A stretch of DNA of 64,000 nucleotides from Patescibacteria group bacterium (lineage in GTDB: Bacteria; Patescibacteriota; Patescibacteriia; UBA9934; GWF2-40-263): positions 143,456 to 207,455 of the forward strand of contig SCUM01000001.1 of NCBI GenBank assembly GCA_004297215.1, written 5' to 3'. Position 1 is the stretch's first letter, and every line of letters begins with the position of its first letter. The notes beneath the pieces are model-generated. The model saw only the letters and a program-made list of their open reading frames with translations, was not told where the DNA came from and searched no databases. A program made the translations under genes and the position numbers. Shown piece after piece: positions 1,747 to 64,000 of this stretch.

Positions 1747-1821
1747 TCCGGGGTAGCTCAGCGGCAGAGCAGTGGACTGTTAATCCATTGGTCGTGGGTT
1801 CGAATCCCACCCCCGGAGCCA
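1747..1821 (+). tRNA. tRNA-Asn (anticodon GTT), CCA encoded
   Basis: Manual cloverleaf: acceptor TCCGGGG/CCCCGGA; D-arm GCTC-AGCGGC-AGAGC; anticodon stem GTGGA/TCCAT with loop CTGTTAA; T-arm GTGGG-TTCGAAT-CCCAC; discriminator G then CCA. Confidence 0.9.
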
Positions 1822-30986: not shown

Positions 30987-31184
30987 GGCTCAGGCTCCTT
31001 CGCGTCCGTGATCGAGCGCGGCCACCATGGCACACGCTCGCAAGGACTTCGGAAGGTATCAGAAAAACGCGGTCTTGTCAATCTGAACCGACGGAAGGAA
31101 TTCCGAAGGATATTGACGATTTCGAGATTTTTTGCTACGGTCTTGGGTCTACGTCAACCGGTTTTGACAGAGAGGAGGTCTGCC

Positions 31185-56028: not shown

Positions 56029-57297
56029 CTACGGTTTCGAGATCATGAAAGGCATCGGGTCCACGGGAATTCCCCCCTTACGGACTTCGAAATGCAGGTG
56101 CGGGCCAGTGGACAGCCCGGCTCCTGACGTCCCCGGCATCCCTCCGGACAGGCCGATCGTCTCTCCGCGAGCCACGAATTGGTCCGCCTTCACCTTCACC
56201 TTGGAAAGGTGGGCGTACAGCGTTGCCAGGCCGTTCCTGTGGATGACCATCACGTAGTTGCCGTACATGCTCCCCACGCGCGTCCAGGCCACATAGCCGG
56301 GAGAAGCGGCCCCGACGGGGGTCCCCTGGGGCTGCGGGATGTCCAGGCCGGAGTGCTCGAATAAACGTCGGAACGGATAGGTCGGGTCATGGAACAGCGT
56401 GGAAATGCCCCGATACCCCGCATCGACGGGCCAGGACATCACGGAACTGTCCCCGACGATATCGGTCGCATCGAGCTTTTCCTGGATATCGCCCTGCAAG
56501 GCGGCGATCTGCTGGGCCACGTACGCCTCTTCCTCGCGCAGGCTTGCGACGATGGCGCGGAATTGCGCTTCCGAGGCCTGGCTTTCGGCCAACAAAGATT
56601 CTTTCGCCCCTTTTTCGAGCTCGAGCTGCCTTCGATTGGCAAGCAGCGTCTCTTGGATCGACGCGAGCCGGGCCCTCTTCCCCTCTTGATCCGTCCGGGC
56701 GACCAGGAGCTGGTCCCGTTCGGCGCGGGCGCGCTCCAGGGCGGAAGCGAGCTCCTCATTCACGTCCGCGAGCTGCTGCAGCCGGTCGAACAGGTCGGCG
56801 ACCGACTCGCTCGAAAAGAGCGCCTGCAGCAACACGTCCCCGTCGGACGAATCCATGGAACGGATCAGTTCGGCCATCAGGAGCTTTTGGCGCTCCAGCT
56901 GGGATTCGTGCGCCCTGACCTGCTTGTCGAGGACCTGCACCTGCGCCGCGACCAGGTCCAGCTCGACCATGTTCCCCTCGATATCGAGTTCGGTCTTCGC
57001 CGCCCGATTCTCAAGAAGGCCGATCTGGTCGTCCAGGCTGGCGGCTTCCGACTCCTTCTTGGCGATTTCCGCCTTATACGCGCTGATCCTGTCGTGCAGG
57101 CCGTCGACGGACGCCTGTTTGTCCTTGATTTGCCCGTTCAGTTGGTTGATTTCGGCCGCGACCGTCGGATCGTCTACCGTGGACGTCTCAAACGTCGCCG
57201 ACCGACCGGTTCCGATACGCAAACACGCGGCGAACGCGAGCGCCGCGAAGACGGATAATCCCGTGAGCTTGATGGAATCCCTCCTGTGACCTGTCAT
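56029..57297 (-). CDS. Coiled-coil M23 (LytM) family peptidase (EnvC-like)
   Basis: Long N-terminal coiled coil plus C-terminal M23 motifs (HxxxD ... GPHLHFEV). Confidence 0.8.
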   Translation of the reverse strand: MTGHRRDSIKLTGLSVFAALAFAACLRIGTGRSATFETSTVDDPTVAAEINQLNGQIKDKQASVDGLHDRISAYKAEIAKKESEAASLDDQIGLLENRAAKTELDIEGNMVELDLVAAQVQVLDKQVRAHESQLERQKLLMAELIRSMDSSDGDVLLQALFSSESVADLFDRLQQLADVNEELASALERARAERDQLLVARTDQEGKRARLASIQETLLANRRQLELEKGAKESLLAESQASEAQFRAIVASLREEEAYVAQQIAALQGDIQEKLDATDIVGDSSVMSWPVDAGYRGISTLFHDPTYPFRRLFEHSGLDIPQPQGTPVGAASPGYVAWTRVGSMYGNYVMVIHRNGLATLYAHLSKVKVKADQFVARGETIGLSGGMPGTSGAGLSTGPHLHFEVRKGGIPVDPMPFMISKP

Positions 57298-58770: not shown

Positions 58771-58836
58771 GGCGGACAAGGCGTTCAGGCATTGACAGGC
58801 CTCGAGGCCTAGGGGCCTGAGGGCCTTTCACGCCAG
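58771..58836. repeat. Dispersed repeat family copy e (GGCGGACAAGGC...GGCCTCGAGGCC...CCTGAGGGCCTTTCACGCC)
   Basis: Between gltX and the WecB-like gene. Confidence 0.55.
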
Positions 58837-59582
58837 AGAATCCTATCCCAAATCACGAGGACCGGGAAGACGACGACGGCACGCAAAATCCGACCGATCC
58901 GACGCGGTTCCTGGATGAGCCGCCATGCCCATTCCATGCCCAGGCGACGCATCCAGGCCGGAGCTCGTCGGATGCGTCCTGAAAGGAACGCGAACGTGCC
59001 GCCGACTCCGATCGCGACTCGGACGGAGGGCAGCTTCGACAGGTGATCCGCAATCCATCGCTCTTGCTTCCCGTGGCCGAACGCCACGGCGAGGACGGCA
59101 GGCGCGAATGCCTGCACCCGTTCGACGAGATCAGCCGGTTGTCGCCAGGCCCCGTCCGCATCCCGGATGACCTGTCCGGGGTCGAGGGATATGACATCTG
59201 CGCCAGGAAACCGTCGAAGGGCCGCCTGGGCCGCGCGTTCACCCTCTTGAGGACCGCCCCCGAGGAACACCACTTTGAGCCGGCGCTCCGATGCGGCCGA
59301 CAATAGGGCCTCAAGCGCGTCCACGCCGGTCATCCGGGTCACGGAGTGACCCAGAAGCCAGGAGGCCGCCCACTGCACCCCTGCCCCATCGGCAAGGATG
59401 ATCGCGGAGCGGCTGATAAGGTCGCCTAGTGACCGTTCGGTCCGCGCCGCAAGCGCCATTTCCGGGTTGAGCGTCACCGCCTGCGATGGGTGGTCGCCAT
59501 CAAGAAGGCGGAGCAAGTCGCCTTTGGGATCCTTGACGGATAGCCGTAAGAGGTCGATGCCGAACCATCTCATGCCCGACAT
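58809..59582 (-). CDS. WecB/TagA/CpsF family glycosyltransferase
   Basis: MRWFGIDLL..AVTLNPEMAL...LADGAGVQWAS..KVVFLGGGP pattern. Confidence 0.75.
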   Translation of the reverse strand: MSGMRWFGIDLLRLSVKDPKGDLLRLLDGDHPSQAVTLNPEMALAARTERSLGDLISRSAIILADGAGVQWAASWLLGHSVTRMTGVDALEALLSAASERRLKVVFLGGGPQEGERAAQAALRRFPGADVISLDPGQVIRDADGAWRQPADLVERVQAFAPAVLAVAFGHGKQERWIADHLSKLPSVRVAIGVGGTFAFLSGRIRRAPAWMRRLGMEWAWRLIQEPRRIGRILRAVVVFPVLVIWDRILWRERPSGP

Positions 59583-59596
59583 CTTACAGGTTCCGA

Positions 59597-59636
59597 TTGA
59601 CAAGGCGAATTAGCACTCTATAATGGTGAGTGCTAA
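59597..59636 (+). promoter_or_regulatory. clpB promoter (TTGACA-16-TATAAT) overlapped by a perfect CIRCE element (TTAGCACTC-N9-GAGTGCTAA, 59610-59636), the HrcA operator
   Basis: -35 at 59597-59602, -10 at 59619-59624. 9-bp perfect inverted repeat with 9-nt spacer, ending 2 nt before the clpB ATG. Confidence 0.8.
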
Positions 59637-59637
59637 T

Positions 59638-62286
59638 ATGCTTCCCAATAATTTCACCCTCAAGTCCCAAGAAGCGCTCCAGGCCGCCCACCGCATCGCG
59701 GTGGAAAACGGGCAGCAGGCTCTCGAACCGCTCCATGTCCTTGCGGCATTGCTCGCGCAGGACGACGGCGTGGTCCCGGCGATCGTCAATAAGGTGGCCG
59801 GAGACCGGGCGGCGCTGCGTGCCCACGTGGATGATGCGATCGATGCCCTGCCGAAATCCAAGGGGCAGCGCATGCAGGCGAACGGGCAGCCCCAGGTATT
59901 CCTCACCCCGGAAACGGCCGAATGCCTGTCAGGCGCCGCGAACAAGGCAAAGCAATTCAAGGACGAGTTCATTTCCACCGAACATCTCCTGCTCGGCCTG
60001 ATGACGTCGAAGAGCGCCGGTCCCCTTCTCGCCCAAGCGGGGATTTCGGAGGAAGGCGTGATGCGCGCGCTCAAGGACATCCGCGGGAGCCAGCGGGTCG
60101 ATTCGGCGGAGCCTGAAGCCAAATACCAGGCGCTCAAGAAATACAGCCGCAACCTCACCGATGCCGCGCGCGCCGGCGAGCTTGATCCCATCATCGGCCG
60201 CGACGCGGAAATCCGCCGCGTGATGCAGGTGCTGTGCCGGCGCACCAAGAACAACCCGGTACTCATCGGCGAAGCGGGCGTCGGCAAGACGGCCGTCGTG
60301 GAGGGCCTCGCGCAGCGCATCGTAAGCGGCGACGTGCCGGAGCTCCTGAAGGACAAGGAGGTGGTGTCGCTCGACATCGGTTCCATGGTGGCCGGGACGA
60401 AATACCGCGGCGAGTTCGAGGACCGCCTCAAGGCGGTCACGAAGGAGATCGAGGAGAGCGGCGGGAAGATCGTGCTGTTCATCGACGAGCTGCACACGCT
60501 GGTTGGCGCCGGTACGACCGAGGGCGGCAGCCTCGACGCGAGCAACCTACTCAAGCCGGCGCTCGCCCGCGGCAAGCTGCGCGCGATCGGCGCGACGACC
60601 ACGAAGGAATACCAGCGCCATATCGAGAAGGACCCGGCGCTCGAACGGCGCTTCCAGCCGGTGGCCGTCGACGAGCCCTCGGTGGAAGATACGATCGCCA
60701 TCCTGCGCGGCATCAAGGAAAAATACGAGATCCACCACGGCATCCGCGTGAGCGACCCTGCCATCGTGTCCGCGGCCACGCTTTCGGACCGCTACATCAC
60801 CGACCGCCGCCTTCCGGACAAGGCGATCGACCTCATCGACGAGGCAGGCTCGGCGCTGCGCATGCAGATCGATTCCATGCCCGAGGAGCTCGACGTGGTG
60901 AAGCGCGACCTGATGCGCCTGGAAATCGAACGCAAGGCGCTTGAGAAGGAAGAAGACAAGGAATCCAAGGCGCGTCTGTCCGAAATCGAACGCCAGATCG
61001 CGGACATCCGTGAGAAGGCTGACGCGCTTGAGGGCCGTTGGAGGAACGAGAAGGATAAGATCGGCGAGATGCGCACGGTCAAGGAAGAACTCGAGTCCTT
61101 GAAGCTCGCGGCCGATGCGGCTGAACGCAAGGGGGCTCTCGATGTGGTGGCTGCCATCCGCTACGGCCAGATCCCCGACGCGGAGCGCCGCCTGAAGCTG
61201 GCCGAGGACCAGCTGCACGCGCTCCAGGCCGAACGCGGCATGCTCAAGCAGACGGTCACGGAGGAGGAGGTCGCGTCCGTCGTGTCGCGCTGGACGCACG
61301 TGCCCGTGTCCAAGATGCTCGAATCCGAGCTTACCAAGCTGGCGCGCATGGAGGAGGAGCTGCGCAAGCGCGTGGTCGGCCAAGAAGAAGCCGTCACCGC
61401 GGTCGCGAATGCCCTGCGCCGCTCCCGGGCCGGCATCGCCGAGGAGAACCGCCCGATCGGCAGCTTCATTTTCCTGGGTCCGACCGGGGTGGGAAAGACG
61501 GAATTGGCCCGTGCGCTCGCCGCGTTCATGTTCAACGACGAGTCCGCTCTCGTGCGTCTCGACATGTCCGAGTACATGGAGCGCCATGCCGCGAGCAAGA
61601 TCATCGGTTCCCCGCCCGGATACGTCGGGTACGACGAAGGCGGCCAGCTCACCGAAATCGTCCGCCGGCGCCCCTACTGCGTGATCCTGTTCGACGAGAT
61701 CGAAAAGGCGCACCCGGACACCTTCAACCTGCTCCTGCAGATCCTCGATGACGGGCATCTCACCGATTCCAAGGGTCGCAAGGTGAACTTCAAGAACACC
61801 GTGATCATCATGACCAGCAACCTGGGGTCCGACCTGATCCTGAACGCGGGCAAGGAAGGCGGCGCCATAGGGTTCGCGGACGAACGTCCGGCGGACGGCG
61901 GTGATTCGGCCGAGGTCAAGGAACGGGTCATGGCGCTCCTCAAGGATTCCTTCCGTCCGGAATTCTTGAACCGCGTGGACGAGATCATCATGTTCCATTC
62001 CCTCGCTGAGGAGGAAATCGGGCAGATCGTGGAGCTGCAGCTCGCCCGCGTGTTCGACCGGCTAAAGAAGCAGCGGGATATCGCCCTGACCGTGTCCCCG
62101 GCCGCCAGAAAGCTGCTGGCAGCCAAAGGCTACGACCCGTCGTATGGCGCCCGGCCCCTCAAACGGGTCATCCAGAGCCTTATTCTCGACCCGCTTTCGC
62201 TCATGCTCATCAAAGGCGAGGTGGCCGAAGGAGCGAACCTCACGATCGGGGCGAAAAACGACGAGATTGCCATCAAGAAGGAATAG
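59638..62286 (+). CDS. clpB: Chaperone ClpB (two AAA+ modules with M-domain coiled coil)
   Basis: [10 protein letters not shown] and [10 protein letters not shown] Walker A motifs, long middle coiled coil, C-terminal [10 protein letters not shown]. Confidence 0.95.
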
Positions 62287-62290
62287 CAGG

Positions 62291-62318
62291 GAAAGCGGCC
62301 TTCATCGGCCGCTTTTCG
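62291..62318 (+). terminator. Rho-independent terminator after clpB
   Basis: AAAGCGGCC-TTCATC-GGCCGCTTTTCG. Confidence 0.75.
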
Positions 62319-62366
62319 ATTTTCGATAATTTGGCTGAACACAGCATAAATATCCATCGTCCCCCC

Positions 62367-62395
62367 TTGACAAAATGCCCAAAAAGTGGTATATT
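62367..62395 (+). promoter_or_regulatory. Strong sigma70-like promoter with extended -10 (TTGACA-17-TGgTATATT)
   Basis: -35 at 62367-62372; -10 at 62390-62395 preceded by TG. Confidence 0.65.
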
Positions 62396-62401
62396 CGTTG
62401 C

Positions 62402-62554
62402 GTCGAAAATGATTCGACATTAGAGCGATGGTCCGAAAGGACCCAGGGAGTTCGAAGGCCCTGCCGCTCGCAAACCGAATCTTGAGGAGAGAGATAGGAC
62501 CTGTTTGTAAGAGACCTGTCTCTGCTGTCTAACAAACTGGTTTTTTATATCCCT
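62402..62554 (+). promoter_or_regulatory. ~150-nt structured leader ending in an intrinsic terminator (GTTTGT..ACAAAC plus T6 at 62503-62546) 9 nt before the start codon. Riboswitch/attenuator candidate.
   Basis: Hairpins GTCGAA-AATGAT-TCGAC, GGTCC-GAAA-GGACC, CAGGG-AGTTCGAAGG-CCCTG, then a terminator hairpin with a U-run. The downstream gene has no SD. Confidence 0.45.
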
Positions 62555-63064
62555 ATGACGATCTTCTCCACCATTCTCGCGACCCTCGTCTTCATCGGCG
62601 TTTCGGCTTCCCCGGTCCCCTTGGACCAGGCCCCTGCCCGCCAAAGCCTCGGCGACGGCGGGGCGACCCCGGCGTTTACGCCGGTGCCCGTGGCGGAGTC
62701 CGCCTCCGAGGTCGGTCCGGACCTGTCCGAGATCGTAAAGCCGGCTCCCAAGCCGAAGGCGATCGGCCGCAAGGTCACCGTCACGGCCTACACCTCGGAG
62801 CCCCGCCAGACCGACTCCACGCCGTGCATCTCCGCGGATAACTCCGACATCTGCGTGAAGTACGCCGCGGGCGAAAAGATCTGTGCCACCAACGACCACC
62901 CCATGCACGCCAAGCTCCATATCGAGGGGTACGGCGAGTGTACGGTGCGTGACCGCATGAACAAGCGCTACACCGGCACCGGCCGCGTGGACATCTACCT
63001 CGGGATGGACACCCCGGCCGCCCGCGTGTGGGGCGCGAAGTTCGTGAACGTGTCTCGGATCTAA
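62555..63064 (+). CDS. 3D-domain (MltA-like/YuiC-like) secreted cell-wall protein
   Basis: N-terminal TM/signal; KVTVTAYTSEPRQTDSTPCISA ... GECTVRDRMNKRYTGTGRVDIYL matches 3D-domain conserved Asp positions. Confidence 0.7.
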   Translation: MTIFSTILATLVFIGVSASPVPLDQAPARQSLGDGGATPAFTPVPVAESASEVGPDLSEIVKPAPKPKAIGRKVTVTAYTSEPRQTDSTPCISADNSDICVKYAAGEKICATNDHPMHAKLHIEGYGECTVRDRMNKRYTGTGRVDIYLGMDTPAARVWGAKFVNVSRI

Positions 63065-63203
63065 CCGGGAACGCCGAGGGCCATCGCTCTCGGCCCTTCC
63101 CTTCGGAGGCGAAGCAAGCGCTTAGCCTCCAAAGACGAAGGTTCGACATCCGCGATTCTTTCCCAATCCAAAAACAACGCAGAAACAGATCCTGGAGGGT
63201 CGC

Positions 63204-64000
63204 ATGGCAGATAAAAAGAGTCCTTCCGTCTCCTTTGGAGACGTGCTCGGAGTGGTCGCCCTCGCGATCGTCTTGTTCGTCGTGGTGGGAAAAGGTTGTT
63301 TCCCGGACACGGCCAGGGCGGCGACCATGACAGAGCAGGCGACGGCTTCGGCGCCTGCTCGTGTGCCGATGCAGTGGCACAACATGTTCTACTCCGTCTC
63401 GGCCTATTCGCCCAGCGAAGACGAGACGGACTCGACACCCTGTGAGTCCGCAGACGGGACGAACCCGTGCGAGCTGTACGCCCTCTACGTCGCGACCGAC
63501 GGCGAGGAGGGCGAGCTCACCTGCGCACAAAATGAACTCCCGTTCGGAACGCCCATGGACATCCCTGGGTATGGTCCCGAACACCTGCAGGAGAACGGGT
63601 TCGGACGATGCGTCGTCCATGACCGCATGAACGAACGGTTCAACGGCAAGTACCACCTCGATGTCTTCTTCCCCACCAAGGAAGAGGCGCTGAAGTGGGG
63701 CAGGCAGACGCGGAGGGCCGTTTACTGGACCCCCGTCTCCAGTGATGACGGCACCGGTTGGGCCTGTCCGACCGAAGAACAAGAAATGACGTCCGGCTGG
63801 GGCATGCGCAAGCTCAAGCAGCGAAAGCATGCCAAATTCCACCTAGGCATGGACCTAGAGGCGGACGCGGGCGACAAGACGTTCGCGGTCACGGCCGGGA
63901 AGGTGACCCATGCCGGAAGCTTCGGCGATTGTGGGCAGACGATCGACGTCACCCATGATGACGGAGTGATGACGCGCTACTGCCACCACGCAAGCCTGAC
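63204..64000 (+). CDS. 3D-domain plus M23-peptidase fusion protein (partial, continues beyond the window)
   Basis: SD GGAGGG 7 nt upstream. YSPSEDETDSTPCESA...GRCVVHDRMNERFNGKYHLDVFF (3D), then TSGWGMRK..HLGMDLEA..THAG (start of M23). Not in the track because no stop lies in the window. Confidence 0.7.
   Translation, partial: MADKKSPSVSFGDVLGVVALAIVLFVVVGKGCFPDTARAATMTEQATASAPARVPMQWHNMFYSVSAYSPSEDETDSTPCESADGTNPCELYALYVATDGEEGELTCAQNELPFGTPMDIPGYGPEHLQENGFGRCVVHDRMNERFNGKYHLDVFFPTKEEALKWGRQTRRAVYWTPVSSDDGTGWACPTEEQEMTSGWGMRKLKQRKHAKFHLGMDLEADAGDKTFAVTAGKVTHAGSFGDCGQTIDVTHDDGVMTRYCHHASL

Follow-up and report, generated by a model that had tools for sequence, protein, structure and literature searches.

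In Firmicutes and Actinobacteria, cell-wall genes analogous to the one considered here are under the control of the cyclic di-AMP (c-di-AMP) riboswitch ydaO, an OFF switch that acts via a terminator (PMC9960051). According to the structural studies cited in that paper, the ydaO fold is internally pseudo-dimeric and holds two symmetry-related ligand pockets (Jones and Ferre-D'Amare, 2014; Ren and Patel, 2014, cited in PMC9960051). Another architecture is that of the hydroxymethylpyrimidine pyrophosphate (HMP-PP) riboswitch, or thiS motif (Atilho et al., 2019), a terminator-embedded aptamer that was set apart from ordinary terminators by the conservation of its terminator loop, an alternative pairing involving the 5' flank and its exclusive link to a single gene class (PMC6478431). 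Comparative genomics has also yielded orphan leader motifs, such as those of Weinberg et al. (2017; PMC5737381). In this study, we analyzed a leader RNA of ~150 nt (62400-62554) lying upstream of a gene for a YuiC-type protein with a 3D domain, in a stretch of 64,000 nt from a Patescibacteria group bacterium (assembly GCA_004297215.1, contig SCUM01000001.1, positions 143,456 to 207,455 of the forward strand), hereafter called the window, to which all positions refer. A preliminary description of this DNA had proposed the leader as a riboswitch or attenuator candidate.

Gene regulation in the Candidate Phyla Radiation (CPR) is almost unexplored, and our search of the literature returned no such motif described in Patescibacteria, nor any structured cis-regulatory RNA for this group. 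Judging from the sequences compared, the leader is best read as a member of a previously undescribed family restricted to Uhrbacteria-like Patescibacteria. As to its function, the predicted structures incline us, with slightly better than even confidence, towards an undescribed, clade-restricted transcription attenuator, in which a factor acting via a conserved loop, AGUUCGAAGR, and a helix that we call S1 would shift the balance between S1 and T, the intrinsic terminator located ahead of the gene.

Promoter, Predicted Terminator and Target Gene

The leader is preceded by a near-consensus extended -10 promoter (TTGACA at 62367-62372, a spacer of 17 nt, TG at 62387-62388 and TATATT at 62390-62395), which scores 11/12 plus the TG extension, as had been noticed at the outset, and is the sole such site within 62000-64000. 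This promoter is conserved in all 13 related leaders, at a fixed distance from them, and we infer that transcription starts at ~62400-62402. The upstream gene, clpB (59623-62286), in whose product the ClpB domains were found, possesses its own terminator; hence, the leader constitutes a separate transcription unit.

Terminator T pairs CCUGUUUGU with ACAAACUGG, with one U-U mismatch, and its base extension (62496-62499) pairs with the U-run. The stem helix is 98% paired in the covariance model (CM) alignment described below. Because its apical region spans 23 nt, it escapes a consensus terminator scanner limited to loops of 3-8 nt. Between the end of the U6 run and the ATG at 62555 there are 8 nt (AUAUCCCU), and no Shine-Dalgarno (SD) sequence was found before this ATG; the terminator, the U6 run and the SD-less start of the preliminary description are thus retained, with its distance of 9 nt corrected by one. 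A GGAGGG SD precedes the next gene (63204). With neither a promoter nor an SD between terminator and ATG, the gene would be expressed by read-through only. This arrangement shows that, on the predicted structures, gene expression requires transcripts from this promoter, or read-through from clpB, to pass the predicted terminator.

The only other extended -10 promoters in the window, with one -35 mismatch allowed, are at 31081 (-) and 31113 (+), the latter reading TTGACG. They form a divergent back-to-back pair, and each leads into a short leader with an ordinary SD and no terminator. The arrangement described above is therefore specific to this locus, and a general habit of the genome is ruled out as its explanation.

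The protein encoded at 62555-63064 is EPO34_01030 (100% identity), and its closest named relative comes from a metagenome-assembled genome of Candidatus Uhrbacteria. Pfam gave no match at E<=0.01 for the 169-aa window protein itself; the 3D domain (PF06725) is matched by 12 of the 38 aligned family members. Three Asp residues (D87, D133 and D146) are invariant in the family alignment, and the family profile, when compared with solved structures, matched only YuiC of B. subtilis (4WLK, 4WJT and 4WLI; E = 5.6e-5). Sequence comparison thereby confirms the 3D/YuiC-type family first suggested for the downstream gene.

A Leader Family without Counterpart in Rfam

At the gathering threshold, Rfam 15 gave for the whole window only the tRNA gene at 1747-1818 (+) and nothing for the leader. 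When the threshold was relaxed to E<=10 on 62280-63250, nine sub-gathering matches appeared, all outside the leader, so that no match overlapped 62400-62554; T-box, glycine, PyrR and ribozyme families were likewise without an Rfam 15 match in the leader. Nineteen related loci returned only tRNAs at the gathering threshold, and no family recurred at E<=10 in ten orthologous loci, where the sole GEMM-like match (18.7 bits, against a gathering value of 59) fell in another intergenic region of locus L167. A tRNA-like element is ruled out by ARAGORN, which found no tRNA-like gene over 62300-63250. The absence of any CM match in the leader, and of any recurring one in the orthologous loci, rules out membership of ydaO-yuiC (RF00379), c-di-GMP-I/II or any other Rfam 15 family; thus, the leader is not a ydaO (c-di-AMP) or c-di-GMP riboswitch, and the early suggestion of RF00379 or c-di-GMP-I has to be abandoned, all the more so as the leader contains a single three-way junction and is not pseudo-dimeric.

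The comparison was based on 160 loci encoding relatives of the protein (designated L and a number), to which 13 more were added by exact-protein look-up. Full homologues of the leader occur in nine distinct loci, which fall into subgroup 1 (the window, L001, which is identical to L081, L161, L162 and L163) and subgroup 2 (L164, L169, L170 and L171). In the six of these nine loci whose DNA reaches upstream, the leader lies between the YuiC-like gene and either clpB (window, L001, L171) or an open reading frame (ORF) cut at the contig end (L161, L163, L164). Reduced variants of ~110 nt (L002, L292, L293) retain the hairpin with the same loop, a purine tract and a terminator carrying a pyrimidine tract in its loop, while L167 keeps the hairpin, its purine tract being reduced to GAGGAGG, and L165/L166 represents a divergent member with the loop AAUACGAAG. 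In all 13 loci, the motif immediately precedes the YuiC-like gene and shares its strand. The U-run is separated from the ATG by 8-25 nt in the nine full members and L165, and by up to ~90 nt in the reduced variants. Mean nucleotide identity is 0.79 in the leader versus 0.75 in the coding sequence, so that the former is conserved no less than the latter, and the spacer upstream of the -35 element is not alignable among orthologues. A covariance model, R1, built from the nine full members (effective sequence number of 1.67), was run over 171 loci and the 64-kb window and found nothing further except a marginal match to L002.

A Three-Way Junction Presenting a Conserved Loop

The leader fold is predicted at -50.8 kcal/mol (z = -2.7 versus shuffled sequence). 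Its helices P0, P1, P1a and P1b and the terminator (Table 1) are backed by both RNAalifold and the CM-guided alignment, in which 90% of cells are paired, versus 28-50% after sliding of the 3' partners, and changes on both sides are seen at 8 pairs. Among 500 shuffles, none reached the observed percentage of pairing, none the observed covariation score, and one the observed number of pairs changed on both sides. The CM alignment places subgroup 2 one column off register in P1 and P1a; with the register corrected by hand, 128/128 cells of P1, P1a and P1b pair (40/40, 43/43 and 45/45, respectively). Compensatory changes are seen in P1 (A-U or G-C at pair 2, G-C or C-G at pair 5), in P1a, where ACCCC/GGGGU of L001 replaces the GGUCC/GGACC found elsewhere with covariation at three pairs, and at the second pair of P1b (CAGGG/CCCUG, CGGGG/CCCCG). 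The P1b stems of the reduced variants are wholly different (CCGG/CCGG, GCGG/CCGC, AAUAAUCGG/CCGAUUAU).

Conservation is distributed quite unevenly over this domain. The P1a loop varies from 4 to 9 nt (GAAA, GCAA, AGGA, AAUAACGCA, ACCCAGC, GUCAGGA), the nucleotides of the three-way junction are variable, and P1 and P1a are missing from L002, L167, L292 and L293. In contrast, 12 of 13 loci share the P1b loop AGUUCGAAGR, L165 being the exception, and the motif occurs once in the 64-kb window. The unconserved junction and the absence of P1 and P1a from reduced variants indicate that the recognisable core is a stem presenting AGUUCGAAGR, a loop that is, judging from its conservation, the presumed recognition site. 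The AUG in the P0 loop is invariant in the nine full members, and P0 has an alternative partner in the linker that follows the junction (GAUUCG with CGAAUC at 62476-62481).

Of the claims made before this comparison, that of three hairpins stands for the hairpins themselves and partly for their loops, two of which had been called GAAA-type: only P1a has a true GAAA tetraloop. The three-way junction, the AGUUCGAAGR loop and the complementarity of the purine tract to the terminator loop were absent from the preliminary description. It had named two outcomes that would together speak against a riboswitch or attenuator, no Rfam hit and no covariation-supported structure in orthologous leaders; the first was obtained and the second was not, since the structure in the orthologous leaders is supported by covariation, and the candidate stands.

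Several other roles for the 5' domain were considered and set aside. Kissing-loop dimerisation via the UUCGAA palindrome is disfavoured by the L165 variant UACGAA, and a pseudoknot between CGAA of the 5' block and UUCG of the loop is broken in L169 (CGUA) and L171 (CGUU). In L001, a second AGTTCGAAG-like site begins at position 848; as this falls within clpB itself, we regard it as a chance match. A scan of viral contigs for GGAGTTCGAAGGCC was uninformative: of 120 scattered matches, 10 had at least three further stem pairs, versus ~6 expected. Attenuation by a leader peptide or upstream ORF is ruled out, given that the ORFs starting at the P0-loop AUG range from 4 to more than 50 codons and share no conserved peptide, that the start-like codon after an SD-like GGAG varies (AUA, AUG, CUG, GAG), and that the 34-aa ORF at 62428-62532 is missing from L001. 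In L001:2773-3001 (Uhrbacteria RIFCSPHIGHO2_01_FULL_63_20), the frame of the 3D gene is open through the leader from the P0-loop AUG, an unconserved feature that we take to be due to chance.

A Purine Tract Complementary to the Terminator Loop

The 3' half of the leader contains a purine tract, GGAGAGAGA, complementary to the pyrimidine tract GUCUCU in the T loop. In the window, the resulting helix S1 comprises 9 bp and encloses the 5' strand of T in its 16-nt loop. The S1 duplex has energies of -10.8 to -16.6 kcal/mol across the nine full members, equalled by 2-86 of 1000 composition-matched shuffles of the apical region. The complementarity is retained in the variants L002, L293, L292 and L165, and is strong in 3 of these 4. 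At the inner end of S1, compensating pairs are found (AUAG/CUGU, AUCG/CGGU, ACG/CGU, GG/CC, GUCAG/CUGAC). As far as the alignment goes, S1 is supported by conserved complementarity and not by formal covariation.

Modelled nascent prefixes that end after the pyrimidine tract fold as the three-way junction plus S1 in 9/9 full members. For the window up to the end of the U-run, the S1 conformer is predicted at -48.2 kcal/mol versus -45.6 for T, with a mean S1 pair probability of 0.99; once the start region is included, T together with an outer helix, formed by the purine tract and UCCCU, reaches -52.8 versus -48.9 kcal/mol for S1. Coexistence of S1 and T as a pseudoknot would leave an L1 of 1 nt in the window. 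In L002, the 9-bp S1 shares CUG with the 5-bp stem of T, which makes the two mutually exclusive in this locus. The T stems of the distant variants are unrelated in sequence.

Other pairings within the leader are less uniform. The duplex of the linker with the 5' strand of T ranges from -4.6 to -11.1 kcal/mol, and the pairings 5' block-linker, linker-T 5' strand and purine tract-sequence after the U-run are each subgroup-specific. The outer helix, which varies from -4.0 to -15.4 kcal/mol across orthologues, is ruled out as a universal element by the inconsistency of these energies. Pairing of the 5' block with the post-terminator tract (GAAGAUGA/UCAUCUUC, -11.1 kcal/mol) exists only in L164 and L170, and a bridge in which T would place GGAG beside the ATG is ruled out by a spacing of 8-25 nt after the U-run.

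Table 1. Features of the leader and of the flanking genes, in window coordinates.
Feature	Position	Strand	Remarks
Intrinsic terminator of upstream clpB	62290-62317	+	11-bp stem, 7 GC pairs, T-rich tail
Sigma-70-type extended -10 promoter (TTGACA-17-TGgTATATT)	62367-62395	+	11/12 + TG; conserved spacing
P0 hairpin, GUCGAA-AAUGA-UUCGAC	62402-62418	+	Helix 97% paired; solid only in subgroup 1
Three-way junction	62423-62469	+	P1 (62423-62427 with 62465-62469) encloses P1a and P1b; covariation
P1a, GGUCC-GAAA-GGACC	62430-62443	+	Variable loop
P1b, CAGGG-AGUUCGAAGG-CCCUG	62444-62463	+	Presents the 10-nt loop
10-nt P1b loop, AGUUCGAAGG	62449-62458	+	Family consensus AGUUCGAAGR; most conserved element
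A-rich linker, GCAAACCGAAUCUU	62470-62483	+	In subgroup 1, mimics the T 3' strand (CAAACCG)
Purine tract, GAGGAGAGAGAUAGG	62484-62498	+	RGGRGAGAG conserved across the family; S1 5' strand, 62490-62498
Predicted intrinsic terminator T	62496-62546	+	5' strand 62500-62508, 3' strand 62532-62540, U6 62541-62546; -14.2 kcal/mol (RNAfold)
Pyrimidine tract, CCUGUCUCU	62515-62523	+	In T apical loop; S1 3' strand; conserved sequence; S1 in all 12 variants compared
Post-terminator pyrimidine tract, AUAUCCCU, then SD-less ATG (62555)	62547-62557	+	UCCCU may pair with AGG(A)GA of the purine tract (outer helix)
YuiC-type 3D-domain protein, 169 aa	62555-63064	+	N-terminal signal or transmembrane segment; presumed regulated gene
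3D-like + M23-peptidase protein, second gene of presumed operon	63204-64000	+	Peptidase_M23 1.8e-9, 3D 0.0049; extends past window end

Proposed Mechanism and Alternative Explanations

In the attenuation mechanism that we favour, the purine tract would pair first with the pyrimidine tract during transcription, thereby trapping the 5' strand of T in the loop of S1, and T would be completed only once S1 opens, the two window conformers differing by ~2-3 kcal/mol. The S1/T balance could then be shifted by a factor, be it a small molecule or a protein, for which the AGUUCGAAGR loop, the purine tract and S1 would jointly serve as the recognition site. Since the loop and both S1 strands are constant and the T stems of distant members are unrelated, we take the S1-containing fold as the recognised state, in which case the factor would favour read-through and the leader would be an ON switch; we hold this polarity to be slightly preferable to the opposite one. 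More speculatively, T and the outer helix with UCCCU may mask the SD-less start after read-through has occurred. From the class of the gene, the signal probably relates to the state of the cell envelope. Two features generally expected of a riboswitch are found here: a structured domain supported by covariation and, by prediction, an intrinsic terminator between sensor and ORF with no other promoter. As to a coupling between the two, the observations point both ways: S1 shows conservation and, in L002 and the window, competition with T, but its core is without covariation and it could coexist with T in subgroup 2.

Several observations weigh against this attenuation mechanism. The unconserved junction nucleotides and the dispensable P1 and P1a are atypical for a metabolite pocket, and a protein-binding hairpin would fit them equally well. 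In the 7-bp core of S1 neither strand varies, so that the formal count gives 90% pairing and no covariation. In subgroup 2, the loop lengths permit a pseudoknot of S1 and T, such that S1 need not be an antiterminator there, and T (-20 to -24 kcal/mol) is far stronger than S1 (-10.6 to -14.2 kcal/mol). No conserved pairing linking the sensor hairpin to S1 or T was found. Many relatives of the gene are preceded by only a short hairpin and a U-run (type B leaders, see below); consequently, a terminator before this gene does not alone imply sensing. Finally, the nine full members fall into just two tight subgroups, the effective sequence number is 1.67, and the covariation thus amounts to few independent events.

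The nature of the factor is where the strongest rival comes in, a protein-dependent attenuator in which an RNA-binding protein would read the AGUUCGAAGR loop, the single-stranded purine tract or both, in the manner of PyrR, TRAP, ANTAR or LicT. Conservation is concentrated in a hairpin loop and a single-stranded tract instead of a junction pocket, the dispensability of P1 and P1a in L002, L167, L292 and L293 points the same way, and the platform sequence is unusually conserved, which is more typical of protein/RNA recognition than of riboswitch platforms. Nevertheless, no protein-binding leader family of Rfam 15 was matched, no candidate gene for an RNA-binding regulator was seen in the neighbourhood examined, and very compact riboswitches with loop- or terminator-embedded pockets exist (PMC6478431), so that we consider this explanation unlikely, although worth keeping in mind. 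The other side of the same question, a new riboswitch class confined to the CPR, would have as its aptamer the AGUUCGAAGR hairpin and S1, half-buried in the T loop, and would sense a small molecule reporting on the envelope; we put it forward tentatively, as a possibility that is open to serious doubt.

The remaining explanations dispense with sensing in cis or return to a known class. A constitutive 5' untranslated region, whose structure would stabilise the mRNA, whose leaky terminator would fix a low output and whose hairpin with its U-rich/pyrimidine tract would serve SD-independent initiation, draws on the type B relatives, where promoter, short hairpin with U-run, often AUUCCCU, and gene follow one another with no space for a sensor, and on the recurrence in types A (the leader family described here) and B of a U-run and UCCCU directly before an SD-less ATG. 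It is quite improbable, for it leaves unexplained the near-invariant 10-nt loop on covarying stems, the complementarity of purine tract and T loop, the near-isoenergetic conformers and a leader as conserved as coding sequence. The strong promoter, the compact structure, the intrinsic terminator and the conserved single-stranded loop, a possible seed, could also be those of an independent trans-acting small RNA of ~145 nt, with the 3D gene expressed by incidental read-through. However, the fixed position on the same strand upstream of the same gene in 13/13 loci, with no separate promoter for the gene, and the failure to find a second copy (loop motif in the 64-kb window; CM over 171 loci) make this very hard to sustain, and the terminator would necessarily control the gene in cis whatever else the RNA does. 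Least credible of all is a divergent ydaO-type (c-di-AMP) or c-di-GMP riboswitch, which is refuted as family membership. Genes of this class are the classic target of ydaO-yuiC, the profile of the family matches only YuiC structures, and ydaO riboswitches precede cell-wall genes and act via terminators (PMC9960051); nevertheless, there is no RF00379 or GEMM match in the leader at E<=10, in the window and ten orthologous loci, and the consensus is one three-way junction followed by a terminator, with no internal pseudo-dimer.

Neighbouring Genes and Other Leaders of the Gene Family

The leader mRNA probably also covers the M23 peptidase gene downstream. The intercistronic region between the two genes (63065-63203) holds a conserved structured RNA with two hairpins (z = -3.1; five orthologues, 10 pairs changed on both sides), without a U-run and followed by a normal GGAG SD. 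The preliminary description had singled out this region as a second leader for comparison; since the CM has no match in it, it is not a copy of the first leader but a separate conserved structured region, possibly with a role in processing or stability, or as a second site of regulation. Upstream of clpB lie a second M23 peptidase gene (56029-57297, -) and a gene for a TagA/WecG-type glycosyltransferase (58809-59603, -), which makes the neighbourhood rich in envelope functions.

Homologous 3D genes are preceded by leaders of other kinds. Type B leaders (L003-L005, L011-L013, L015, L018, L053, L066, L070, L074, L076, L099, L107 and L140) consist of a strong extended -10 promoter followed within ~5-45 nt by a short GC hairpin and U-run; AUUCCCU often comes next, ahead of the 3D gene, and the UUCCCU of L011 and L015 is able to pair with the SD (GGAGGGGA). 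Type C1 leaders were found in other Patescibacteria (L025, L029, L030, L032, L034, L035, L036, L118 and L121). They extend over ~170 nt downstream of the promoter (e.g. L034:2673-2842), with 43 predicted pairs of which 10 are changed on both sides, and their closing helix GUCUC/GAGAC adjoins the start codon (CCUGUUUAUG). Type C1 is a second unannotated riboswitch-like candidate, which probably acts on translation. Types A and C1 share GAGAC/GUCUC, CCUGUUU and UUYGAAGR; because the C1 consensus fold puts these words in different structural roles, no homology between the two types is claimed. Type C2 leaders (L017, L022, L023, L038, L041, L043 and L047; e.g. L017:2635-2815) measure ~180 nt and have conserved 5' (CCUCAAGAUUUGGAAGA) and 3' (GCGAAGCAUnAUUCCnnUCAUGAGA) blocks able to pair. 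Neither C1 nor C2 leaders gave an Rfam match. Counting C1 and C2, the gene family has at least two more types of unannotated structured leader and is thus promising for the discovery of new RNA sensors.

The public starts of the 3D ORF in two loci (L164:862 and L165:1254) fall within the terminator hairpin, in its 3' half. With in-frame ATGs further downstream as starts, the N-termini become MNMITSLFATL (L164) and MSLITTLFATI (L165), which match MTIFSTILATL of the window protein. This conservation puts the start downstream and rules out a start codon inside the terminator in these loci; the public starts are thus probably ~13 codons too long.

Comparison with Known Systems

A leader unrelated to ydaO and equally elaborate, placed before a ydaO-type target gene, suggests that RNA control of peptidoglycan remodelling arose convergently in these ultra-small bacteria, which often depend on a host. 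Should the leader prove to be a riboswitch with c-di-AMP as its ligand, it would represent a second c-di-AMP class, with a fold unrelated to ydaO, that converged on the same YuiC-type target. A leader RNA this compact, particularly in its reduced form, is directly testable for ligands.

With the orphan motifs found by comparative genomics, the leader shares the character of a clade-restricted structured element preceding peptidoglycan-remodelling genes; it differs from them in phylum (Patescibacteria) and consensus, and those included in Rfam 15 have no match in the leader. Of these motifs from the work of Weinberg and colleagues in 2017, lysM and NLPC_P60 are reportedly leaders of cell-wall genes. 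The T-loop motif is the UUCGA pentaloop module of the tRNA T arm, and the P1b loop does contain UUCGA, while the UACGA of L165 keeps U1...G4-A5 and loses the UUCGAA palindrome. This is a resemblance only, in that the P1b loop has 10 nt instead of 7 and lacks the closing G-C of the T arm.

Like ydaO-yuiC, the leader is positioned before a gene for a YuiC-type 3D-domain protein or cell-wall hydrolase and employs an intrinsic terminator as its platform, ydaO itself typically preceding genes for cell-wall, K+ or osmolyte functions. It is nonetheless non-homologous (no CM match), has a single three-way junction and no internal repeat from which a pseudo-dimer could arise, and reaches about half the length of ydaO when aptamer core and platform are taken together. 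The likeness to the HMP-PP riboswitch concerns the abnormally conserved terminator loop, the 5'-flank pairing predicted to compete with T, the association with a single gene class and read-through as the presumed regulated step. There is no sequence or CM similarity between them, and the leader contains an extra conserved upstream domain, the stem or three-way junction with AGUUCGAAGR. The thiS-motif consensus and thiamin-precursor genes are both absent here, the gene being that of a cell-wall enzyme, so that the resemblance is architectural only. While it belongs to neither of these two classes, the leader is closest to the HMP-PP riboswitch in architecture and to ydaO in its target gene.

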